Shown piece by piece: positions 43,633 through 56,206 of a DNA stretch of 64,000 bases (the stretch's first letter is position 1; each line of letters opens with the position of its first letter). The translations under genes were made by a program, and so were the position numbers. A model generated the notes under the pieces. That model was not told where the DNA came from, did no database searches, and saw only the letters and a program-made list of their open reading frames with translations. The stretch comes from Bacteroidaceae bacterium (GTDB lineage: Bacteria > Bacteroidota > Bacteroidia > Bacteroidales > Bacteroidaceae). The stretch covers positions 7,926 to 71,925 of the forward strand of contig JAEEZS010000067.1 in the NCBI GenBank assembly GCA_016291905.1, written 5' to 3'.

Positions 43633-43707
43633 AGGGGCGTAGCCCAGCTGGTTAAGAGCGCTGCAGTCACATTGCAGAGGTCATCGGTTCGAGCCCGATC
43701 GTCCCTA
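43633..43707 (+). tRNA. tRNA-Val (anticodon CAC)
   Basis: Hand-folded cloverleaf: acceptor AGGGGCG/CGTCCCT (one G-U pair), anticodon stem CTGCA/TGCAG with loop GTCACAT, T-arm ATCGG-TTCGAGC-CCGAT. The T-arm resembles Bacteroides tRNA-Val as I recall it. Confidence 0.8.
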
Positions 43708-43756
43708 CGAGAGGAATTGTTTTGTTCATGACGCCGGAGGTTATTCTCCGGAAATA

Positions 43757-43913: not shown

Positions 43914-43919
43914 CTGATG

Positions 43920-43993
43920 TGACTCCTATAGGATTCAAACCTATAACCTTCTGATCCGTAGTCAGATGCTCTATTCAGTTGAGCTAAGGAGCC
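43920..43993 (-). tRNA. tRNA-Arg (anticodon ACG)
   Basis: Reverse-complement cloverleaf: acceptor GGCTCCT/AGGAGTC, D-arm GCTC-AACTGAATA-GAGC, anticodon stem TCTGA/TCAGA with loop CTACGGA, T-arm ATAGG-TTTGAAT-CCTAT. A TACCTTTG box lies at 44018-44025 on the minus strand. Confidence 0.85.
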
Positions 43994-46418: not shown

Positions 46419-46584
46419 CCTTCCGAAATCGGCTGCGAAGATAGTGAAAACTCCGCACAACGCCAAACGAAACCCCCGTCATTTTTTCCCTAAAAAACCA
46501 TTTTCCGAAACTTTTTCCCCTTGCGTCACCCGTTTCGCGTTTTTTTGACTAACTTTGTCCCCCAAACCGCAAAAATCCGCTTCT

Positions 46585-47997
46585 ATGAAAACAACTCTCC
46601 GTCCCGCTGTCTGCCGCTGCCTCCTCACCCTCGTGCTGCTCCCCCTCGCCCTTGCCGCCTTGGCCCAGCAGCCATCGCTCCACCAGCTTCAGCAGCAGTT
46701 CATCGACCGCCGCTTCGGCATGTTCATCCATTTCAACATGCCCACCTTCTGCAACCAGGACTGGCCCGACCCCGACGCCCCTGCCGACCTCTTCAACCCC
46801 ACGCAGCTCGACTGCCGCCAGTGGGCCCGCGCCGCCAAGACCGCCCACATGTCCTACGGCTGCCTCACCGCCAAGCACCACAGCGGCTTCTGCATCTGGG
46901 ACACCCAGACCACCGACTATAACGTCATGCACAGCCCCCTCCGCCGCGACGTCGTGCGCGAGTATGCCGACGCCTTCCGTGCCGAGGGCCTTGCCGTCTA
47001 TCTCTACTACTCCATCCTCGACACCCACCACCGTCTGCGCCCCCACAGCATCCAGCCCAGCCACGTCCAGCTGATCAAGGACCAGCTCACCGAGCTGCTC
47101 ACCAACTACGGCCCCATCGGCGCCCTCATCATCGACGGCTGGGACGCCCCCTGGAGCCGCATCTCCTACGACGACATCCCCTTCGAGGACATCTACCGCC
47201 ACATCAAGTCGCTCCAGCCCGACTGTCTCGTCATGGACCTCAACGCCGCCAAATACCCCCGCGAGGCCCTCTTCTACACCGACATCAAGTCCTACGAGCA
47301 GGGCGCCGGCCAGCGCATCAGCACCAGCCAGAACCGTCTGCCCGCCCTCGCCTGCCTGCCCCTACAGAGCAGCTGGTTCTGGAAGACCAGCTTCCCCACC
47401 GACCGCCTCAAGGACCCCGCCGAACTCGTGCGCGACAACATCGAGCCCTACGGCGACGCCTACTGCACCTTCATCCTCAACGTCGCCCCCAACCGCGACG
47501 GCCTCATGGATGCCAACGCCCTCGCCGCCCTGAAGGAGATAGGCCGCCTGTGGACGCGCACCGGCCACGTCGCCGACCTCCCCGAGACCTCCGCCCCCAT
47601 CATCAGCAGCAACCTCGCCAAGAACCGTCCCACCGAGGGCACGTGGAGCGACGACTATGCCATCTACGACTTTGCCAACGACGACAACTTCGGCACCTGC
47701 TGGAACGCCAACCGCGAGGTCATCACCCCCTGGTGGAGCGTCACCCTCGGGCGCGAGACCCCCTTCAACCTCGTCGTCATCACCGACCGCGACGCCGACC
47801 GCCTGCAGCGCTACCGCCTCGAGGCCCTCTGCGCCGGCCGCTGGCAGACCCTCTTCGAAGGCCACGCCCCCACGACCGAGCGCGTCAAGATACACCGTTT
47901 CCCCACCGTCTGGGGCAGTCAGGTGCGGCTGACGGTGCTTGAGAGCCGCGGCACCACCTCCATTGCCGAAGTCGGCGTCTATTGCGAGCGCAGGTGA
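46585..47997 (+). CDS. GH29 alpha-L-fucosidase with a C-terminal F5/8 type C (discoidin)-like domain
   Basis: Signal peptide MKTTLRPAVCRCLLTLVLLPLALAALAQQ. Motifs FGMFIHFNMPTF and AKHHSGFCIWDT. A TAACTTTG box lies at 46550-46557. Confidence 0.85.
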   Translation: MKTTLRPAVCRCLLTLVLLPLALAALAQQPSLHQLQQQFIDRRFGMFIHFNMPTFCNQDWPDPDAPADLFNPTQLDCRQWARAAKTAHMSYGCLTAKHHSGFCIWDTQTTDYNVMHSPLRRDVVREYADAFRAEGLAVYLYYSILDTHHRLRPHSIQPSHVQLIKDQLTELLTNYGPIGALIIDGWDAPWSRISYDDIPFEDIYRHIKSLQPDCLVMDLNAAKYPREALFYTDIKSYEQGAGQRISTSQNRLPALACLPLQSSWFWKTSFPTDRLKDPAELVRDNIEPYGDAYCTFILNVAPNRDGLMDANALAALKEIGRLWTRTGHVADLPETSAPIISSNLAKNRPTEGTWSDDYAIYDFANDDNFGTCWNANREVITPWWSVTLGRETPFNLVVITDRDADRLQRYRLEALCAGRWQTLFEGHAPTTERVKIHRFPTVWGSQVRLTVLESRGTTSIAEVGVYCERR

Positions 47998-48040
47998 TAA
48001 GATGTCGCCTGTTTCCTATTCCTTTTAATATAGTTTCCGC

Positions 48041-48928
48041 ATGAAGCCCGCTCTGATTTTCCACCAGTATATCTGGATTATCAATACGTTCCGAACCTTT
48101 GGGCGTCTGACTTTTGACGAACTTGCCCAAAAGTGGAAGGCTGACAAAGTAGCCAATGGCAATCCATTGCAGCGCTCGTCGTTTAACCGTCATCGTGATG
48201 CCATTCTCGATATGTTCGGCATTATCATCGACTGCGAGGCTAAAACCTATAAATACTATATCAGCAATCCCGAAGTCCTGAACGACGATGCCATAGAACG
48301 TTGGCTGCTCTCCACGCTTACCGTCCAAGGCGTGCTCTCCGACAGCGTTTCCATCAAGGAGCGGATTGTCTTGGAGGAAGTGCCTGCGGGCGAAGAATAC
48401 CTGCAAACCATCATTCGTGCCATCAAGTCCGGCAAGCGTCTTCGTCTTGGCTACCAACGTTTCGGCACGGAAAGCCACGAGACGACGGTTTCGCCCTATG
48501 CGCTGAAGCTGTTTCACCGGCGTTGGTATCTGCTGGCTTACACAGGGCGCCACATGGCAACCTATTCGTTGGATCGTATGACCAAGGTAGAGATGACGGA
48601 CGAAAGTTTCACCTTTCCTGCCGACTTCTCGGCTCAGGAATACTTTTCGGAGTATTACGGCGTGTTGGCCGACGAGACCCCGATGGCCCACGTTGTCATC
48701 AGAGCCCATGCCTGGACTCCTGACTATATCCGCACCCTTCCTTTGCATTCTTCCCAGCGCGAGATAGGGGCTACGGACATGTACGCCGATTTCTCCTACG
48801 ACCTTCGTCCCACAGCCGATTTTCTGGGCACGCTGCTCTCGCATGGCGACGGTATTGAGGTGCTCGAACCCCTTGAGCTGCGCGAGAAAATGAAGAAAAT
48901 GATAGCCGAAAATCTTAAAAGATATTAA
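48041..48928 (+). CDS. WYL-domain transcriptional regulator (wHTH-WYL-WCX, BrxR/CapW-like architecture)
   Basis: 295 aa with an N-terminal HTH-like region and a central WYL signature (VSPYALKLFHRRWYLLAY). The size and layout match defence-associated WYL regulators. Confidence 0.8.
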   Translation: MKPALIFHQYIWIINTFRTFGRLTFDELAQKWKADKVANGNPLQRSSFNRHRDAILDMFGIIIDCEAKTYKYYISNPEVLNDDAIERWLLSTLTVQGVLSDSVSIKERIVLEEVPAGEEYLQTIIRAIKSGKRLRLGYQRFGTESHETTVSPYALKLFHRRWYLLAYTGRHMATYSLDRMTKVEMTDESFTFPADFSAQEYFSEYYGVLADETPMAHVVIRAHAWTPDYIRTLPLHSSQREIGATDMYADFSYDLRPTADFLGTLLSHGDGIEVLEPLELREKMKKMIAENLKRY

Positions 48929-49003
48929 AATCGCGCAGGGTGTCCCGACTTTTGGGTCACCACCCCTCTTACTTTGCATCCGTAATCATAAAACAGTAGT
49001 ATT

Positions 49004-49348
49004 ATGGAAGCAAAGAAACTCTATTTCATGGATTGCCACCTTGCTGGCAGAATGTATTACGATGCCGACGAAGTATGGGATCAGCTGAAAGTCGGAACAA
49101 TGCTAAAACTGGAGCGCGACAAAGAGAATCATTATGACCCCCATGCCGTAATGGTTGTGTATGAGGACAATGCCGGCGAAGAATTCAAGTTGGGATACAT
49201 CCCTCGTGGCGAAAACGAAACCCTTGCCGGCTTGCTCGAAATGGGTTGGACGGACATCTTCGAGTGTCGCATCAATAAACTGAATCCTGACGCCCACCCC
49301 GAGCACCAGGTCTTTATGACAATAAAAATAAAAAGGAATAAGAAGTAG
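49004..49348 (+). CDS. Stand-alone HIRAN-domain protein
   Basis: 114 aa. LAGRMYYDADEVWDQLKVGTMLKLERDKENHYDPHAVMVVY...LGYIPRGENETLAGLL fits the HIRAN pattern (G..yy...G..l.L.re..N.yD..Av.v....lGyip). Confidence 0.8.
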   Translation: MEAKKLYFMDCHLAGRMYYDADEVWDQLKVGTMLKLERDKENHYDPHAVMVVYEDNAGEEFKLGYIPRGENETLAGLLEMGWTDIFECRINKLNPDAHPEHQVFMTIKIKRNKK

Positions 49349-49371
49349 ATAATAAATACAGAAATAAAACT

Positions 49372-49581
49372 ATGGCAACGTTTTACACAATAAAATGTCC
49401 GAAATGCGGGAAGGTCTTCCATGTCGCCAAGTGGGTGTTTGCGAATTGGGATTTTTCGAAACCCGTACCTGTTGAACTGCGGGACGAAACGCCGTTCCAT
49501 TGCCCCGAATGCAATCATACGATGTGCGTGCTGGACGATGATTTCCACGACAATGTGCTGGAAGTGATACATGGCGACTAG
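49372..49581 (+). CDS. Small zinc-ribbon protein (69 aa)
   Basis: Two CxxC knuckles (CPKCG ... CPECN). The gene lies 23 nt after the HIRAN gene. Confidence 0.6.
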   Translation: MATFYTIKCPKCGKVFHVAKWVFANWDFSKPVPVELRDETPFHCPECNHTMCVLDDDFHDNVLEVIHGD

Positions 49582-49665
49582 GGAGTATAATTCAATCTGT
49601 ATTTGCGTGAATAAAAAAAGAATCATTACCTTTACATTTAATATCACATTTAAAAAACTACAATT

Positions 49666-50304
49666 ATGCAAACGAAAAAGACAAAACGAATTTTCAACCT
49701 GATTATCGTCGATGAAAGCGGATCGATGTCCGTTATACGCAAGCAAGCTTTCGCTGGGATGAACGAGACGCTACAAACCATTAGGAAAATGCAGGAGAAG
49801 TATCCCAATCAAACGCAGCTGGTTACTCTGGTCACCTTTGATAGCGACCATTTCACTTGGCATTATGACAACACACCAGCTTCCGACACAAATGATTTGA
49901 AATGGAAAGACTATAATCCAGGTGGATGCACGCCTCTATACGATGCTATTGGAAAATCCGTCTCAAAAGTAAATGCGCAGATTGACGAAGATGACAACGT
50001 GCTTGTAACTATCATCACGGATGGCGAAGAGAACAGTTCCATAGAGTGGACACTCAAAATGGTTCGCACCCTGATTGAGAAACTAAAGAAACAACATTGG
50101 ACTTTTACACTCATCGGAACAGACAATCTGGATGTAGAGACTATGGCTCGCGGTTTTGCGATAGACGAGCATTTAAAGTTCCAGCAAGACGAAGAAGGAA
50201 CAAAAGCTATGTTCGCTCGCGAACGTCGTAGCCGCGAACGATACAACTGCAGTATTGAGGAAGACATACCACTTCCATCAGGCTCGTTCTTCGAAGAAGA
50301 ATAA
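49666..50304 (+). CDS. von Willebrand factor A (vWA) domain protein with a complete MIDAS motif
   Basis: The motifs IIVDESGSMS (DxSxS), GGCTPLYDAIG (Thr) and IITDGEENSS (Asp) are all present. 212 aa, no signal peptide. Confidence 0.8.
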   Translation: MQTKKTKRIFNLIIVDESGSMSVIRKQAFAGMNETLQTIRKMQEKYPNQTQLVTLVTFDSDHFTWHYDNTPASDTNDLKWKDYNPGGCTPLYDAIGKSVSKVNAQIDEDDNVLVTIITDGEENSSIEWTLKMVRTLIEKLKKQHWTFTLIGTDNLDVETMARGFAIDEHLKFQQDEEGTKAMFARERRSRERYNCSIEEDIPLPSGSFFEEE

Positions 50305-50490
50305 ACAGTATTATCTCAAAGGGACTTTCTTGGCTCAGCTTATCCAAGTCCCTTTGTTTTTCAAAAAAGTCATAGCCTATTTTTTTATTTATCAAATAAT
50401 CCTTAACTTTGTTCCGCAATAAGGAAAAGGAAAGTTATTCTACATTTTTCTTTAATAAGTAAAGAGTGTAATCATTAAAAGGAAGATACC

Positions 50491-51867
50491 ATGAGTGTAT
50501 GTGTTTATTTTAAGACAGAGAAGCAATTAGAGCCTAAAGAAATATTCAAGGCTGTTGCTGATAAAGGAGAGCAGATAATGGTTGTATCATCTGAGTTTCC
50601 AAGTTTGAAATTCGGCAGGATGTATGCAGCTTTGAGGGGCTTGGAAGTAAATCAAGAGGAAGAAGGATTTGAAATCAGAATATGTGCAAACGCTTCCAGA
50701 GAGGATTATCGGCTGTATCCTGTGGTTATAGATGTAATGAACGAGTTAACATCGATAAAAGCTAAAAATGAAGACGATGAGGACATTAATAACCCATATG
50801 AAATATTCAATGATGAATGGATCGACGACCAGATGAAGGCAGATAGAAATGTCACTTGCGCTTTAATAAGATCTTCTGGCGCGTCAATTACATATAACGG
50901 AATGTTCTCGGACTTTTGTCTTGGTTTTCACATCATGAACGGGTTCGAAGTGGATATCAAGAACCCAGATGAATCTAAATATAACGGACTGCTGGAGTAT
51001 CTGGTTAGTGTTCAATGGATGTTGAAAGATAAAAAGGATACAAGCTCTAGGATTTTGATTCAGAATCCTAATGATAAAGAAGAGACGAGGAGCGTGTCTT
51101 TAATCTCCATTAAGAATAACCAACTTGACAAATTTGACTATATCTCACATGCTTCTTTGTTTTGTATAATGAATCAAGATACCGGAGAAGTGGCTATAAT
51201 GCCTTTTGAGCATCTTCCCAAAATAGTGAGAAGCAAGAGCCTTAAAATCATCGATGAATTTTCTTTTTTCAAAGATGGCAGGTTGATGGTCAATAGCGTT
51301 AAGGAAATGATGACATTGGCCAAGCGATATCAGCCACGCGACTTGTTCTATAGGCCTACTTTCCCAGGTAGTGGCTATGACAAAAAACAGCATACCTTTA
51401 TCCTGAAATGGAACCCAGCCATTTCCAGCGTAAAGATGGAAGACCATCTGGAAGGATTACGCAACATTTGGGTAGATGATTTTAACTGGAGTGTATATGA
51501 ATGGGAGAAAGCCGAAATGGGCGATCGCTTCTATCTTGTTAGGGTAGGTGAAGGTAACACAGGAATCGTTATGTCTGGTGTGTTTAGCTCACAACCTTAT
51601 GTTTTAGATGATTGGAGTGGTAGGGGTCGAACTGTTTATTATATGGAGATGAAGCCTAATGTTATCATTGATCCTGATAGAGCTCCAATGATTACAACGA
51701 AGGAATTAGACGAAGCCATTCCTGATTTTACATGGAATGGTGGTCATTCTGGCCACATGCTTACCGATGACCAAGCAATGAAACTGGAGAAACTCTTCGC
51801 GAAATATTTCAAGAAGATTGAGGATAAAGATGATGGCGAAACAATCAACGTGCTTCATCGTTTTTAA
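50491..51867 (+). CDS. Hypothetical 458-aa protein with a C-terminal PUA-like (EVE/ASCH-like) region
   Basis: The N-terminal ~310 aa show no recognisable motif. The C-terminus HTFILKWNPAISS...FNWSVYEWEKAEMGDRFYLVRVGEGNTGIVMSGVFSSQPY resembles the EVE/PUA pattern (W.lK.NP..w...W.v.....GD.f.ly....GIvg.g.v.s.py). A TAACTTTG box lies about 80 nt upstream. Confidence 0.6.
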   Translation: MSVCVYFKTEKQLEPKEIFKAVADKGEQIMVVSSEFPSLKFGRMYAALRGLEVNQEEEGFEIRICANASREDYRLYPVVIDVMNELTSIKAKNEDDEDINNPYEIFNDEWIDDQMKADRNVTCALIRSSGASITYNGMFSDFCLGFHIMNGFEVDIKNPDESKYNGLLEYLVSVQWMLKDKKDTSSRILIQNPNDKEETRSVSLISIKNNQLDKFDYISHASLFCIMNQDTGEVAIMPFEHLPKIVRSKSLKIIDEFSFFKDGRLMVNSVKEMMTLAKRYQPRDLFYRPTFPGSGYDKKQHTFILKWNPAISSVKMEDHLEGLRNIWVDDFNWSVYEWEKAEMGDRFYLVRVGEGNTGIVMSGVFSSQPYVLDDWSGRGRTVYYMEMKPNVIIDPDRAPMITTKELDEAIPDFTWNGGHSGHMLTDDQAMKLEKLFAKYFKKIEDKDDGETINVLHRF

Positions 51868-51872
51868 TTCTT

Positions 51873-52841
51873 ATGTTAGGAGCGATAATTGGTGATATCG
51901 TAGGGAGCCGATGGGAGTTCAATCCTACCAACGACTACAACTTTGAGCTGTTCTCAGACGAGAACGACTTTACCGACGACACCATCTGTACGGTTGCTGT
52001 GGCTGATGCGTTGTTGAAAGGGCGTGACTTTGGCCAGAGCATCCACGACTGGTGCCGACGCTATCCTCATCCGATGGGCGGATATGGATGCTCGTTTGTC
52101 GGATGGGTTCAAAGCGATAATCCCCAACCCTATGGCAGCTATGGTAACGGGGCAGCCATGAGGGTTAGCCCTGTGGCACATTGGTACGAGGAAGTCGGTC
52201 AGGTCCTTGATGCTGCAGCTGCAACAGCCCTTCCATCCCACAACCACGAAGAGGCTATCAAGGGCGCGCAGACGGTGGCATTAGCCATCTTCAAGGCTCT
52301 TGAGTACAAGAGATACCGAGAAGCTGCTTTGCACATCGACGAAATCCTCGCCGAGTGCGTACAGTTCTCCGGCTACGATATAAACATGCCAAAAGCCTCC
52401 GTCCTGAACAAGTTCGACGAAACCTGTCAGGGAACCGTGCCTGTCGCTTTGAAGATTATCAGCATGGCTACCTGTTTTGAGGATGCCGTGCGTCTGGCTG
52501 TCAGCCTTGGTGCCGATGCCGACACGTTAGGAGCCATCACAGGCAGCATCGCCGAGGCAATCTGGGGCATACCGTCAAAGTTGCGAAGGCCGTTTGAAAA
52601 GTTCCTGCCTGACGACATGCTGTCTGTCCTGAATGAGTTCCATCAAGCACGTCCTCGTTCTTTCATTCCCCTCATCGATACCTGTTTTTCGGGCGATGAT
52701 TTTAGCGATGTTTGTTGGGAAATCCTTTATGACGTGGATGGCAAAGAGGGCTACGACAAGATAAAGAGCAAGACGATGAGCGAGCATGAACAGAAACGCA
52801 TGCTGATGGCAGCACGCGCCAAAGCGAGGGAGGTTTGGTAA
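51873..52841 (+). CDS. ADP-ribosylglycohydrolase (ARH/DraG-family) protein
   Basis: The N-terminus MLGAIIGDIVGSRWEF, and GNGAAMRVSP and GADADTLGAITGSIAEA, are hallmark ARH motifs. It starts 5 nt after the preceding gene. Confidence 0.85.
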   Translation: MLGAIIGDIVGSRWEFNPTNDYNFELFSDENDFTDDTICTVAVADALLKGRDFGQSIHDWCRRYPHPMGGYGCSFVGWVQSDNPQPYGSYGNGAAMRVSPVAHWYEEVGQVLDAAAATALPSHNHEEAIKGAQTVALAIFKALEYKRYREAALHIDEILAECVQFSGYDINMPKASVLNKFDETCQGTVPVALKIISMATCFEDAVRLAVSLGADADTLGAITGSIAEAIWGIPSKLRRPFEKFLPDDMLSVLNEFHQARPRSFIPLIDTCFSGDDFSDVCWEILYDVDGKEGYDKIKSKTMSEHEQKRMLMAARAKAREVW

Positions 52842-52884
52842 AAGTATCTTTCATGATTGTTTTGAAAAAAACAAAAAAATGAGT

Positions 52885-52892
52885 TATCTTTG
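52885..52892 (+). promoter_or_regulatory. -7 promoter box TATCTTTG
   Basis: It lies 31 nt upstream of the 52923 ATG. Confidence 0.55.
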
Positions 52893-52922
52893 CATCGAAA
52901 TAATAAAACATAGTCAAATATC

Positions 52923-54632
52923 ATGAGTAAAATAACAGGAAAGGAATATCCCATTTGCGATATTTTCACTTATAAGTTTGAGTATCACATACCTAGTTAT
53001 CAACGTCCTTATGCATGGGAAAAAGAACAAGCTGAAACTTTGTTCGATGATTTATTGGATTTCTACAAGAATCAGCCTAAAGATGACAATTATTTCTTGG
53101 GAAGTATTGTTCTTATCAAGGAAGACGATGAAAACAAACCTTATTCAGACGTGATAGATGGACAGCAGAGATTGACCTCGTTGACAATTCTTCTCTCAGT
53201 AATAGCATCTGTAATAGAAGATGTAAAATTGAGAACAAAGGTCGAAAAATATCTTTATGAGGATGGAGACGAACTAATTGGATTGGCACCTCAACCAAGG
53301 CTCTTTCTTAGACCAAAAGAAAGGGACTTTTTCAAAGATTTCATACAGGATGTGCAAATAGATAAACTGCTCTCATTAAAACCAGATAGCCCAGTTTTTG
53401 ATACGGAAGCCAAAAAGCACATCAGAATCAATTGTCAGGCTTTTAAGGATAGATTAGAGCAGAATTTTGTGCCGGAAAGTGATGATTTCAAGAAATTTGT
53501 TAGTTTTATACTTAAGCGCTGTTATCTAATATCAGTAATGACACCCAGTCAGACTTCCGCCTTCAGAGTGTTTTCTGTTATGAATAGTCGGGGATTGGAT
53601 TTGTTGCCGATTGATATTTTTAAAGCGGATATTATTGGAGAAATTCCTTCTGGTCTTCAGAATTATTATACCCAAAAATGGGAAGATATGGAGAATGATT
53701 TGTCCCGTCAGGGATTCAACGAATTGTTTGTCCATATTAGAATGATTTATGCTAAAGAGAAACTTCGCGAGGAACTTGTTACCAATTTTAAGAAAACGGT
53801 AATATCACAAATAAGTAAATCGGAAGATTTTATCGACAAAGTCCTGTTTCCTTATTGTAAGGCTTTTAATACAATCCGAAAATGTGACTATTCTTCAACG
53901 TCTGATACAGCTAAGCAAATAAATGAAATGTTTAAATGGCTTAACAAAGGATTTAACTATGACTGGATTCCTGCTACATTAAAGTTCATGCTTAGTTATG
54001 GAAACGATTCAAATTACCTGCTGTGGTTTCTTAAAAAAATGGAACGGCTTGCTACGTGTTTAATGGCAACGGGTCAGGATGTCAACAAGCGTATAAACCG
54101 ATATGTCCAAATTCTAAATGAGTTGGAGAATAGAACTAACCATAGTCTATCTTCGCCTTTGGTTTCAATTGAACTTACTGAAGAAGAGAAAGCCTTATTT
54201 ATTGACGTCTTGAGTAAAGATATTTATAATATGACATCAAGATATAGGAATTACATTATTCAACGTCTTGACTCTTTTGTCTCAGATGGAGCTGCCACAT
54301 ATGATGAAAAAGTATTTACGATAGAACACGTTTTACCACAGACCGTCAATCCTGATTCTCAATGGGCTCATCTTTGGCCAGACGAAGCAAAAAGAACCTT
54401 TTGGTTGCACAAAATTGCCAATCTTGTTCCTCTTGCTCGTAGAATTAATTCTGCTGCTCAGAACTACGACTTTGATGAGAAAAAAGAAAAATATTTCACT
54501 AATTCTAGAACAGGTACATCCTCATATAATCTTACTACTCAAGTATTATCCATTCCTGTTTGGACTGAAGAGGTCGTAGAACAACGTCAAAACAATTTGA
54601 TAAACGTTTTCAAAGCAAATTGGGAATTATAA
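52923..54632 (+). CDS. GmrSD-like type IV restriction enzyme (DUF262 + DUF1524)
   Basis: The N-terminal DUF262 motifs are IPSYQRPYAWEKEQAETLFDDL and DGQQRLTSL. The C-terminal DUF1524 His-Me finger motifs are TIEHVLPQ and IANLVPLARRINSAAQNYDF. Confidence 0.85.
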   Translation: MSKITGKEYPICDIFTYKFEYHIPSYQRPYAWEKEQAETLFDDLLDFYKNQPKDDNYFLGSIVLIKEDDENKPYSDVIDGQQRLTSLTILLSVIASVIEDVKLRTKVEKYLYEDGDELIGLAPQPRLFLRPKERDFFKDFIQDVQIDKLLSLKPDSPVFDTEAKKHIRINCQAFKDRLEQNFVPESDDFKKFVSFILKRCYLISVMTPSQTSAFRVFSVMNSRGLDLLPIDIFKADIIGEIPSGLQNYYTQKWEDMENDLSRQGFNELFVHIRMIYAKEKLREELVTNFKKTVISQISKSEDFIDKVLFPYCKAFNTIRKCDYSSTSDTAKQINEMFKWLNKGFNYDWIPATLKFMLSYGNDSNYLLWFLKKMERLATCLMATGQDVNKRINRYVQILNELENRTNHSLSSPLVSIELTEEEKALFIDVLSKDIYNMTSRYRNYIIQRLDSFVSDGAATYDEKVFTIEHVLPQTVNPDSQWAHLWPDEAKRTFWLHKIANLVPLARRINSAAQNYDFDEKKEKYFTNSRTGTSSYNLTTQVLSIPVWTEEVVEQRQNNLINVFKANWEL

Positions 54633-54730
54633 TTCCGATTGCTGCAAAAAACCAAAAAAGAATCTCTGGGAGAGAGACGATAAAAAATGTATAAAATGTA
54701 AAAGTATTGGGAAAATAAAAAAAATCTATA

Positions 54731-54825
54731 TATATTTGCACCCGATAAGAGTGGCAACCGATGCACTTGTGGTTCTGAGCGAGGAATGAGTAGGTTGTCG
54801 CTCTTATTCTTAATATAGTTTTTAT
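54731..54825 (+). ncRNA. Candidate small structured RNA (orphan promoter + 15-bp stem + U-run)
   Basis: A TATATTTG box lies at 54731-54738. AUAAGAGUGGCAACC (54745-54759) pairs with GGUUGUCGCUCUUAU (54793-54807) as 13 Watson-Crick and 2 G-U pairs. T5 occupies 54819-54823. There is no ORF. Confidence 0.3.
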
Positions 54826-55058
54826 CTTCGTGATAGACCAGCAAATCAAAATATTGCTGGAATTATAAGACATTAGGCTTCATGATGAAATAAATTTTAG
54901 GCGGTAGCCAGTCAAAGAATACTATATCTTGTGGACAAATACATCTCAGATGAGGCAAGGGCTAAAGGAGAAGAGCTGATGAGAAAGTATGACGTTTATT
55001 ATCCGATAATAAGGCGTAGGATATGTTAGGGGAAAGGCTTTCAAATAATCCGCCCGGA

Positions 55059-55125
55059 CGGATTTTGACACTTGGAAAATGATTTTGACCAAATGACCAA
55101 ATGACCAAATGACCGCACGCGAATC
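55059..55125. repeat. 67-bp direct repeat, copy 1 (solo arm of the GGTCATTT-iteron element)
   Basis: cggattttgacacttggaaaatgattttgaccaaatgaccaaatgaccaaatgaccgcacgcgaatc. It is identical to 55756-55822 apart from 2 mismatches. Confidence 0.85.
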
Positions 55126-55287
55126 GTATCAGTAGCCGAAGTCGCCCGAAGAGAATCGCCAGGGACAGGACAACCGATCCGCTGAATTATAGTTCCCCCG
55201 ATACGCCACAATGTATTTTTGCTATATCTTTGCAGATATATACTCCTTGATTTTTGAAATAAGCTGGCGGGCAGGTGCTACGTATGG

Positions 55288-55530
55288 CTACAGTTTCTCT
55301 TTGTCAGCCTCAAAGAAACAATTATAATCGGCATTATCACGCATGATAACCAAATCGGAGAACAAAGCGCCATCTTCCTTCGAGAAGAGTCCACTCTTGA
55401 CATAATGCTCACCAAACAATGCCATTACACCCCGATGGCTTTTCACATTGTGGCCATCGCTTATCAGCAATGCTGGCCACCTGCCGGATGCTGTCTATAA
55501 CCTTTGTTCCTTCCATAAATCTATATCTCT
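55288..55530 (-). pseudogene. Decayed HEPN-domain (toxin-antitoxin type) gene remnant
   Basis: The 60-aa ORF ...LLISDGHNVKSHRGVMALFGEHYVKSGLFSKEDGALFSDLVIMRDNADYN matches the C-terminal two-thirds of HEPN proteins (KSHxGxxxxF...R..ADY). The N-terminal part is in another frame or behind a stop, and there is no MNT partner gene. Confidence 0.5.
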
Positions 55531-55655
55531 ATCAGACAAACGCCGCTGCAAAAAAAACGTATATAATGAGGAAAAGCAAGAAATTGGACGACTTTTTTAT
55601 ATGAAGCGAATGCTTTTTTCCCGAATATAGTTCCCAATGGGTTGTCCAGTTGTCT

Positions 55656-55822
55656 GGTCAAAGTGGTCATTTGGTCATTTGGTCATTTGTCATTTTCGTT
55701 TTCTGATTCGGTCATTTGCTCACTATATATAAATATAATATTTATTATATAGTGGCGGATTTTGACTCTTGGAAAACGATTTTGACCAAATGACCAAATG
55801 ACCAAATGACCGCACGCGAATC
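55656..55822. repeat. Structured element: inverted arms of (GGTCATTT)3-4 iterons around an AT-only palindromic core; the right arm lies within the 67-bp direct repeat copy 2 (55756-55822)
   Basis: Left arm ggtcaaagtggtcatttggtcatttggtcatttgtcatttt (55656-55696). Core cactatatataaatataatatttattatatagtg (55721-55754). Right arm ...gattttgaccaaatgaccaaatgaccaaatgacc (55773-55811). Confidence 0.85.
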
Positions 55823-56206
55823 AAAAAATCGGGCTCTAGTGCGATGTCATAACTTTTGGGGGTTTGATGTTTGATTACGACAAAGGTATCGGCTATTGGA
55901 GAAAAGCAAAGAATTATTGATGGAAGTTTGTGTTTCTAACATTTTCGATGGCACTATGCTCGTAGCGTTAAGGGCTGTGCCGACAGCGTTTAACTTTGTG
56001 CTCGTAGCGTTAAGGGCTGTGCCGACAGCCCATTGGGCTATAACAGTTCATAGTTCATAATTCATAGTTCATAATTCTTAGTTCATCCCACATTTGGACA
56101 AAAACTGAAAACAACCTACGCAAAAAAACGAGCGAGTTGCCGAAAATTACCCCAACGAAACGATGCAAAAACCAGAAAACCGTTTGGCGGGGTGGGATTG
56201 TTTTTG

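Follow-up and report, generated by a model that had tools for sequence, protein, structure and literature searches.

A mosaic ADP-ribose-themed conflict island in a Bacteroidaceae genome contains a new PUA-like domain family

ADP-ribosylglycohydrolases (ARHs) are antidotes in the known pairs of an ADP-ribosyltransferase (ART) and an ARH. In a 2026 study, the ARH-like protein DarG3 was described as an antitoxin of the DNA ADP-ribosyltransferase DarT (PMC13069673), a precedent that makes the action of an ARH fold on nucleic-acid ADP-ribosylation plausible. Another type of setting, the predicted “ARG-centric” host systems, was reported from actinobacteria, planctomycetes and proteobacteria (Iyer, Burroughs, Anantharaman & Aravind 2022, Viruses 14:1977, PMC9503650). 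Its components are an ARH that has no transferase, a regulator of the WYL or Nudix type, phosphatases, and vWA or other chaperones (PMC9503650, section 3.8). The phosphatases (rhodanese-phosphatase, alarmone-type HD, or HAD) are present in ~55% of the systems, and NADAR, macro, restriction endonuclease, helicase and ARPP are variable modules; the proposed role, a prediction, is to strip the ADP-ribose that viral transferases put on host macromolecules (PMC9503650). ARPP, in which a Cys and a Gln are absolutely conserved, occurs in ARG-centred systems and, apart from these, next to HIRAN or a WYL regulator in neighbourhoods of two genes (PMC9503650). EVE domains, with the topology β-α-β-α-β4, are found in operons of the form HTH-WYL (YafY)-EVE (HTH, helix-turn-helix) and serve type IV restriction as specificity modules (Bell, Wolf & Koonin 2020, PMC7641849). 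Here we analyse two adjacent open reading frames in a 64,000-nt stretch of a Bacteroidaceae genome (assembly GCA_016291905.1, contig JAEEZS010000067.1, positions 7,926 to 71,925; hereafter the window): ORF1, which encodes a two-domain protein, and ORF2, which encodes an ARH. With a probability of roughly 60%, we take them to be two independently mobile cassettes that were placed back to back by recombination, and not a co-evolved pair.

ORF1 and ORF2 lie on the same strand and are separated by 5 nt (Table 1), as had been noted in a preliminary description made from the letters alone. The single shared promoter box named there was likewise found: between 47.9 and 52.8 kb, no exact TAnnTTTG box other than TAACTTTG lies on the + strand. 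Motifs of the TAnnTTTG type are promoter elements in Bacteroidetes. Upstream of this box, the vWA gene is followed by a terminator-like hairpin (positions 50317-50356: −17.2 kcal/mol, z = −4.2, with 0 of 200 shuffles equally stable) and a U-run. Because the hairpin divides the vWA gene from the box, ORF1 and ORF2 constitute a separate transcription unit. A sigma-70/terminator consensus scan passed over this terminator because of its long loop, and it was revealed by direct folding. No comparable structure was found 3′ of ORF2, and the next box, TATCTTTG, is upstream of the GmrSD gene. ORF1 is a genuine conserved gene (>228 clusters, nearly all of 460-470 aa), and its start codon is backed by M1-S2, which is invariant among 39 homologues. 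The GC content of the two genes is in sharp contrast (0.39 for ORF1 vs 0.53 for the ARH gene).

The pair is not conserved. In a one-genome-per-species collection, 31 loci with full-length ORF1 homologues were found, and an ARH within 10 kb was present in only one of them (L001), which is the identical locus; in the other species (30/30) no ARH was found within this distance. L001 belongs to a Bacteroidales metagenome-assembled genome (UBA1189) and is the nearest public locus, sharing both the island and its chromosomal site with the window. Divergent ARHs were also sought in 80 genome loci with phmmer and then with hmmsearch, which was effectively a single-sequence search with one ARH hit available as input, and L001 was again the only locus found. 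From the opposite side, 86 loci centred on close relatives of ORF2 contained a gene for a PUA-like domain, the C-terminal domain type of ORF1, in only three cases (L087, L099/L100); BLAST and profile HMMs agreed on these three, two of which also carry the DUF4299-like domain, the N-terminal type. The ORF1 homologues are often alone beside housekeeping genes (Na:Ala symporter, AlgH-like, adenine deaminase) or an IS200-type transposase, a placement that a toxin in need of a cognate antidote could not have. The genes directly 3′ of them encode LRR (leucine-rich repeat), SIMPL, adenine deaminase or no-match proteins without a recurrent partner, and a Pfam scan of these genes detected no macro, NADAR or ARH domain.

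Comparison at the DNA level located the boundaries of the exchanged segments. L087 is 96% identical to the window through the WYL, HIRAN and zinc-ribbon genes, and the similarity ends at 49656, just before the vWA gene. It is regained at 51868, within the 5-nt gap, and extends across the ARH gene at 92%. In place of vWA and ORF1, L087 has a gene for a different PUA-like protein of 370 aa, with a gap of 287 nt to the ARH gene. In L089 the vWA gene is directly followed by the ARH gene, and similarity to the window resumes at 51861. For L001, the divergence from the window sets in at 52897, shortly 3′ of the ARH gene. As similarity is lost and regained at gene borders, the ORF1/ARH junction is a cassette boundary and a recombination breakpoint. 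The vWA gene was detected anywhere in the locus in 22/86 ARH-centred loci vs 3/80 loci centred on the PUA-like domain (p = 6e-5), and its homologues in the ARH loci (53-79% identity) often adjoin the ARH gene. This enrichment near the ARH and not near ORF1 is suggestive of an insertion of ORF1 between the members of an older vWA-ARH pair in the window.

The AlphaFold2 model of full-length ORF1, built with 39 homologues, has a pLDDT of 93.8 and a pTM of 0.88 and consists of two domains. Residues 1-296 form a divergent DUF4299-like α/β domain (pLDDT 94.2 when modelled separately), in which a β-α-β4-α unit (residues 2-87) and, at residues 185-280, another four-stranded meander with helices can be distinguished. 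A Foldseek search of this domain against PDB and BFVD gave no significant match, and the top 50 matches included no ART, Sir2, TIR or nuclease fold. The best PDB match was the C-terminal peptide-binding domain of ZipA, which is a weak one (E = 0.055) and is likewise a sheet with helices on one face. The chaperones TY-Chap1-3 have two five-stranded β-meanders with two helices on one face and resemble YbjN and type III secretion system chaperones (PMC9503650); YbjN/CesT were not in the top 50. In 17 of 39 relatives, PF14132 (DUF4299) aligned colinearly with the N-domain below threshold (best score 27.9 bits, gathering cut-off 31), one distant standalone relative exceeded the cut-off (33.1 bits), and the window's own ORF1 had no PF14132 match. 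Searched exhaustively with HMMER, 1.84 billion representatives yielded only 109 relatives of the N-domain, which are either fusions of ~460 aa or standalone proteins of ~270-290 aa. To our knowledge, DUF4299 has no known function. It has been observed in a variable effector/immunity region belonging to Campylobacter jejuni's type VI secretion system (T6SS), where an adaptor role was suggested (PMC8285248). The N-domain is most likely a binding or adaptor module.

Residues 297-458 form a new PUA-like domain of the EVE/YTH type. The preliminary description had read an EVE/PUA-like pattern in the C-terminus of ORF1, and this holds at the level of the fold and not of the sequence. The best Foldseek matches of the domain are YTH and EVE structures (probability ~1.0, target-normalised TM-score 0.5-0.6), including 4u8t (YTH, E = 1.8e-3) and 2eve and 2ar1 (EVE, TM-score 0.57-0.61); further fold matches are THYN1 bound to DNA with 5-methylcytosine (5mC) and VcaM4I, an enzyme dependent on 5-hydroxymethylcytosine (5hmC). 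The order of strands (E) and helix (H) assigned by DSSP (E302-307, H316-324, E331-334, E346-351, E358-365, E370-372, E382-393) agrees with the EVE pattern. ORF1 had no match in Pfam, NCBIfam, PHROGs or PADLOC, none of the 39 family members had a PUA-like Pfam match (including PF01878) at E ≤ 1, and searches of PDB sequences with profiles A1 and A3, the latter being the PUA-like domain, gave nothing meaningful. The PUA-like family comprises 783 clusters, mostly standalone proteins of ~160-185 aa, and none of them has a Pfam assignment. Its motifs are WNP..SS, NWSV, DWS and GHSG, and the invariant columns are W, P, S, S, W, S, G, G, G, S, P, D, W, Y, L, W, G and G. Four Trp residues (W307, W333, W375 and W415 in ORF1) are invariant across all architectures; they are suggestive of an aromatic pocket, for which binding of a modified base is predicted. 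The domain is absent from the INPHARED phage genomes and from IMG/VR (2.9 million viral contigs), and a search for carriage of ORF1 or its C-domain by phages or plasmids gave one weak match only, on a Sinorhizobium megaplasmid. Two ORF1 relatives of 577-578 aa (P0008, P0022) have an extra C-terminal domain of ~110 aa after the PUA-like domain (…GKFKCRGEIGRTSPLAKKYLNLYAGMNL…NGNDYWYY…), which has no Pfam match.

The PUA-like domain has recurrent partners, which were counted in 80 loci carrying it (77 for the spacing figures). A HIRAN gene lies directly upstream of the PUA-like gene (≤250 nt, often overlapping) in 19/77 loci, and a WYL regulator gene lies ≤3 kb upstream in 23/77. Both are enriched relative to the ARH-centred loci: 25/80 of the PUA-carrying loci have HIRAN and 31/80 have WYL, against 2/86 (p = 2e-7) and 9/86 (p = 2e-5), respectively. 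A conserved effector was sought 3′ of the WYL-HIRAN-PUA modules and none was found. NADAR is an ADP-ribose-processing hydrolase family that reverses guanine ADP-ribosylation of DNA. The PUA-like domain is fused to NADAR in proteins of 325-346 aa in three species (L064 9998-11038, L065 4917-5894, L072 9998-10975; PF08719 E = 5e-53 in L064) and to HD_4-type regions in eight loci. It is also C-terminal on UvrD-like helicases of ~1390 aa (L074 6296-10453, L075 3054-7235), which have a weak sub-threshold PD-(D/E)xK match (19.4 bits, cut-off 22). Other fusion partners are BspA-type LRR, several unknown regions and, in ORF1, the DUF4299-like domain. In L062, ORF1 is split and permuted into WYL-HIRAN-PUA(168 aa)-[DUF4299-like + extra, 505 aa], an arrangement that is evidence, of the Rosetta-stone kind, for a joint action of the two halves of ORF1. 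The L074 and L075 helicases resemble modification-dependent restriction enzymes, and in L074 a second PUA-like protein (442 aa) is encoded after the helicase. Tandems of PUA-like (163 aa), HIRAN and PUA-like (163-175 aa) genes with overlapping stop and start codons were observed in L050, L054 and L056, so that two paralogous putative reader genes flank one HIRAN gene; those of L050 and L056 come after vWA and WYL genes.

ORF2 matched the ARH family PF03747 with 106 bits (E = 3.8e-30, cut-off 26.2, residues 1-233) and phrog_6572 with E = 2e-60. The canonical motifs that had been recognized earlier are kept (FTDDT at residues 32-36, GNGAAMR at 91-97, GADADT at 212-217), as is the C-terminal extension of ~60 aa, which is present in >100 clusters of 318-325 aa. 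Its nearest solved structures are 2cwc and ARH3; GNGAAMR and GADADT align with the former, and TDDT and GNGAAMR with the latter. The clade of ORF2 is abundant (68-93% identity) and far better conserved than ORF1. Scores against the models of known antidote ARHs are far below the cut-offs, namely 34.3 bits for DraG (TIGR02662, cut-off 337) and 30.6 bits for Tri1 (NF041672, E = 1.4e-7, cut-off 490), and scans with the domain libraries detected no ART domain in any gene of the island. Judged by its motifs, ORF2 is catalytically intact and has predicted hydrolase activity; it is an ARH of the ARG-centric type, which lacks a transferase. ARH homologues with ~53% identity are encoded by Porphyromonas phage 005b (L167 4001-5102) and Bacteroides phage Versailles (L168 4001-5090); they are shorter, do not have the 60-aa extension, and in both phages a hypothetical ORF of ~108 aa overlaps downstream.

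Among the 86 ARH-centred loci, neighbours within 5 kb were NUDIX (30/86), the vWA protein of the window type (18/86), WYL (9), an alarmone-type HD protein of 143 aa (6), SIR2 (5) and a protein of ~365 aa with a weak sigma-r4-like match (13/86). Genes for PD-(D/E)xK, helicase-PLD, GmrSD and type I restriction-modification (R-M) proteins were further neighbours, and WYL lies directly upstream of the ARH gene in L081-85, L088 and L166. An overlapping HD-X-ARH operon was found in four loci (L094 2531-4377, L095 653-2499, L097 3408-5254, L110 7180-8963). In it, HD is 143 aa long, and the middle protein (123-145 aa) has no Pfam match, its gene being closely coupled to those on either side. The HD regions fused to PUA-like domains are 42-68% identical to the standalone HD proteins near ARHs (8-9 ARH loci) and retain the H...HD...D signature. 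This likeness, the NADAR fusions and the occasional cases in which a PUA-like gene lies just upstream of an ARH of the ORF2 clade (window/L001, L087, L099/L100) tie the PUA-like domain to an ADP-ribose/nucleotide-processing toolkit.

The two genes are part of a low-GC, variable conflict/defence island in a chromosomal hotspot (Table 1), in which WYL+WCX, HIRAN, zinc ribbon, vWA, ORF1, ARH and GmrSD genes are followed by ~1.5 kb of remnants and repeats; the right part, 54.6-56.2 kb, has nothing else. The GC content of the island genes is 0.35-0.53 (WYL 0.52, HIRAN 0.46, vWA 0.44, GmrSD 0.35) vs 0.62-0.66 in the flanking genes (genome ~62-66%). The WYL+WCX protein, in which no HTH domain was detected, is taken as a transcription regulator because of its family membership. 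Both the GmrSD_N and the GmrSD_C domain were matched in the GmrSD gene. No att-like flanking repeats, tRNA or integrase were found at the borders, and an Rfam scan of the whole island gave no family. L001 and L087 share the hotspot with the window and have different cargo; in L001 the GmrSD gene differs (28% identity) and one flanking gene is missing.

Table 1 Coordinates of the island, its genes and the elements of the ORF1–ORF2 transcription unit.
Feature	Positions in the window	Strand	Basis
Low-GC variable conflict/defence island, chromosomal hotspot	48034-56190		GC per gene, varying cargo
WYL+WCX protein, 295 aa	48041-48928	+	PF13280 E = 1.2e-15; PF25583 E = 2.6e-8; PADLOC WYL E = 5.5e-32
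HIRAN protein, 114 aa	49004-49348	+	PF08797 E = 5.7e-14; PADLOC PDC-M03B E = 6e-18
Zinc-ribbon protein, 69 aa	49372-49581	+	two CxxC pairs; weak zinc-ribbon matches
vWA protein, 212 aa	49666-50304	+	PF00092 E = 5.7e-7
Terminator-like hairpin and U-run 3′ of the vWA gene	50317-50361	+	RNA folding
Predicted Bacteroidetes-type −7 promoter box of the ORF1–ORF2 unit, TAACTTTG	50404-50411	+	by sequence
ORF1, 458 aa	50491-51867	+	ATG start
ORF1 residues 1-296, divergent DUF4299-like α/β domain	50491-51378	+	model; sub-threshold PF14132
ORF1 residues 297-458, new PUA-like (EVE/YTH-type) domain	51379-51867	+	Foldseek; secondary structure
5-nt junction, cassette boundary	51868-51872	+	DNA comparison with L087 and L089
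ORF2, ARH, 322 aa	51873-52841	+	ATG start
Promoter box upstream of GmrSD, TATCTTTG	52885-52892	+	exact TAnnTTTG
GmrSD-type type IV restriction endonuclease, 569 aa	52923-54632	+	PF03235 E = 9e-37; PF07510 E = 8.5e-26; PADLOC Orf5 E = 2e-151

Several further features of the hotspot were observed. A high-GC gene left of the island (46555-47997, 480 aa, secreted and glycosidase-like by eye) is missing in L001, which is syntenic otherwise (window 46511-48033 compared with L001 7187-7269), so the cargo of the hotspot, and even one flank, differ between close relatives. A 67-nt direct repeat with 97% identity between its copies (55059-55125 and 55756-55822) contains three units of CAAATGAC. Together with a 25-nt inverted copy between them (55665-55689), the copies bracket a remnant of a HEPN-like gene on the minus strand (55288-55470). 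The element also occurs in L087 (L087 5956-6089), where it occupies the sister island's right edge, and may be a recombination element of the hotspot or one resembling miniature inverted-repeat transposable elements. Just inside the right border of the island, a perfect 31-nt direct repeat (55957-55987 and 55999-56029, 42 nt apart) has a TAACTTTG box between its copies, at 55991. The genes for tRNA-Val(CAC) (43633-43708, +) and tRNA-Arg(ACG) (43919-43993, −) are ~4 kb to the left of the island, off its border.

A mechanism can be proposed for the two-cassette reading. Recombination would have set the ORF1 and ORF2 cassettes together in a variable conflict island headed by the WYL protein, which probably holds the cassettes under the control of a ligand. 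HIRAN domains bind DNA 3′ ends, and HIRAN and the PUA-like domain probably recognize a nucleic-acid feature, namely a 3′ end and a modified base or ribose adduct. ORF1 would be a self-contained and probably non-catalytic two-module protein, in which the Trp-rich pocket of the PUA-like domain is the predicted binding site for a modified nucleotide or nucleic-acid moiety. Its DUF4299-like domain would fill the slot held in paralogues by HD, NADAR, helicase/nuclease-like or LRR modules. The ARH, usually accompanied by vWA, NUDIX and HD (also WYL), is predicted to erase the ADP-ribose that invaders impose on host macromolecules, and GmrSD would add restriction of modified DNA. Co-transcription of ORF1 and the ARH gene would be a product of cassette shuffling with at most loose synergy; cooperation of a reader with an eraser is possible and is not required by either gene.

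Some of the observations weigh against this reading. The ARH-centred sample consists mostly of short rumen contigs, so its neighbour frequencies are lower bounds. ORF1 and the ARH gene are co-transcribed in the window, and in the divergent island of L099/L100 an ORF1 homologue (45% identity) is near an ARH (71% identity), with a gene for the zinc-ribbon protein, which follows HIRAN in L087, between them; some functional cooperation of ORF1 and the ARH is therefore possible. The N-domain has invariant polar residues (R49, E52, E61, R63, D72, T184, S203 and D255) and could be an enzyme with an unrecognized fold. The ARG-centric model is itself a prediction. One alternative is that the two genes are, in this lineage, a true functional unit as a dedicated reader-eraser pair, in which the PUA-like domain of ORF1 recognizes ADP-ribosylated DNA, RNA or protein and delivers or activates the co-transcribed ARH. 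It would account for the 5-nt gap behind one promoter, the fusions of PUA-like domains elsewhere to NADAR and to ARH-associated HD hydrolases, and the ORF1 or PUA-like genes just upstream of ORF2-clade ARHs in L087 and L099/L100, and it has a parallel in the ARH-fold DarG3, which can act as an antitoxin of DarT (PMC13069673). However, the pairing was seen in only 1/31 and 3/86 loci, the junction is a recombination breakpoint between genes of very different GC content, the ARH of L087 comes after a different PUA-like protein and a 287-nt gap, and ORF1 and the ARH each function elsewhere without the other. We regard a dedicated pair as rather unlikely.

The preliminary description had gone further and proposed that residues 1-310 of ORF1 could be an ADP-ribosyltransferase or another NAD-using effector, that is, a toxin for which the ARH is the antidote or the reset by the logic of DraT/DraG and Tre1/Tri1. 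The tight spacing, the common promoter and the antidote role of ARHs in known ART/ARH pairs would fit. The two computational checks it had suggested, a structure search and co-occurrence statistics, refute this reading: despite a model with a pLDDT of 94 there is no ART, Sir2, TIR or nuclease fold and no enzymatic fold match among the top 50 in PDB/BFVD, and the ORF1 homologues of the 30 other species, often alone beside housekeeping genes, have no ARH within 10 kb, and the junction is a cassette breakpoint. A toxin-antidote pair is thus hardly credible, and of the proposed ADP-ribosylation module the ADP-ribose-themed conflict island is what stands. In place of a paired toxin, the island could provide orphan immunity to interbacterial toxins, with the ARH acting like Tri1 and with DUF4299-like, LRR and TPR (tetratricopeptide repeat) proteins binding toxins. 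The occurrence of DUF4299 in the T6SS effector/immunity region of C. jejuni (PMC8285248), the BspA-LRR and TPR genes that recur around family members, the weak match of the ARH to the Tri1 model and the absence of a locally encoded transferase point in this direction. On the other hand, the islands are rich in genes of anti-phage type (GmrSD, type I R-M, PD-(D/E)xK, SIR2, helicase-PLD), the Tri1 score is a small fraction of its cut-off, HIRAN and the PUA-like domain point to nucleic acids and not to protein toxins, and no recombinase or T6SS genes were seen; we consider this explanation unlikely. Finally, the remnants and repeats in the right part of the island would fit if the genes were decaying passengers or housekeeping genes of a horizontally acquired segment with no role in defence. 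Both ORFs are, however, intact members of conserved families, their association with WYL, HIRAN, vWA, NUDIX and restriction genes is strong and non-random, and the turnover of cassettes in the hotspot is typical of conflict systems, which makes a locus without defence role very improbable. The two independently mobile cassettes are thus the reading that we prefer.

As a broader and still tentative proposal, which we hold to be doubtful at present, the PUA-like domain may read ADP-ribosylated nucleic acid or a nucleotide derived from ADP-ribose. Joined with WYL and HIRAN, it would be the core of a sensor to which exchangeable HD, NADAR, ARH, helicase/nuclease-like and DUF4299-like modules are recruited, and ORF1 with the ARH would be one reader-eraser combination that defends Bacteroidales against ADP-ribosylation imposed by invaders. 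If true, this would be the first PUA-fold reader of an ADP-ribosylation mark and would offer a handle on how cells sense the modification. A predicted arm of bacterial immunity undoes the ADP-ribosylation that phages or toxins impose, and through the locus in the window and its relatives, the predicted ARG-centric systems now reach into the abundant Bacteroidales of gut and rumen. The analysis also exposes an un-annotated PUA-like family that is linked tightly to WYL and HIRAN and fused to hydrolases that process ADP-ribose or nucleotides. It carries a caution as well: where two genes in a defence hotspot are 5 nt apart, the gap can be the scar of a recombination and not the sign of a co-evolved pair.

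The closest resemblance is to the ARG-centric systems. As in these, the ARH is not coupled to a transferase or sirtuin (some sister loci do carry SIR2), the island has a WYL+WCX regulator, in the window protein without a detected HTH, and a vWA protein as the peptide-binding chaperone, and restriction-type nucleases, accretion of NADAR and HD, and rapid turnover of modules between close genomes are seen in the window or in sister loci. Unlike them, the window has no phosphatase beside the ARH, the alarmone-type HD being found in sister loci (HD-X-ARH); the host is a member of the gut/rumen Bacteroidales, the nuclease is GmrSD, and PMC9503650 does not name the PUA-like and DUF4299-like domains as components. 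With the EVE systems, the locus shares a PUA-like barrel of the EVE/YTH branch, the pairing with WYL, nuclease and helicase fusions and the defence-island setting. It differs from them in having no sequence match to PF01878, in its partners (HIRAN, HD_4, NADAR, DUF4299-like) and in having no McrB fusion. The contextual niche with HIRAN and WYL is common to ARPP and the PUA-like domain. Identity of the C-domain with ARPP was rejected for now because the defining Cys and Gln are absent; the domain has a simple EVE-type topology, which the fold described for ARPP does not fit, and it is set apart by comparison with ARPP's description only. An ARH-fold hydrolase and a conflict context are shared with the ART/ARH pairs (DraT/DraG, Tre1/Tri1, and DarHTG with DarG3), which differ in that here no transferase gene or fold is present, the DraG and Tri1 scores are far sub-cut-off and the neighbour is not conserved. 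The N-domain is like DUF4299 (PF14132) in the colinear alignment over ~300 aa in 17/39 relatives and in its standalone relatives of 270-290 aa, and unlike it in that the window protein has no match and most scores are sub-cut-off. PMC9503650, PMC7641849 and PMC13069673 do not describe the Bacteroidales setting, the link to HIRAN or the PUA-like and DUF4299-like modules, and the locus is a mosaic ADP-ribose-themed conflict island that contains a new PUA-like domain family.

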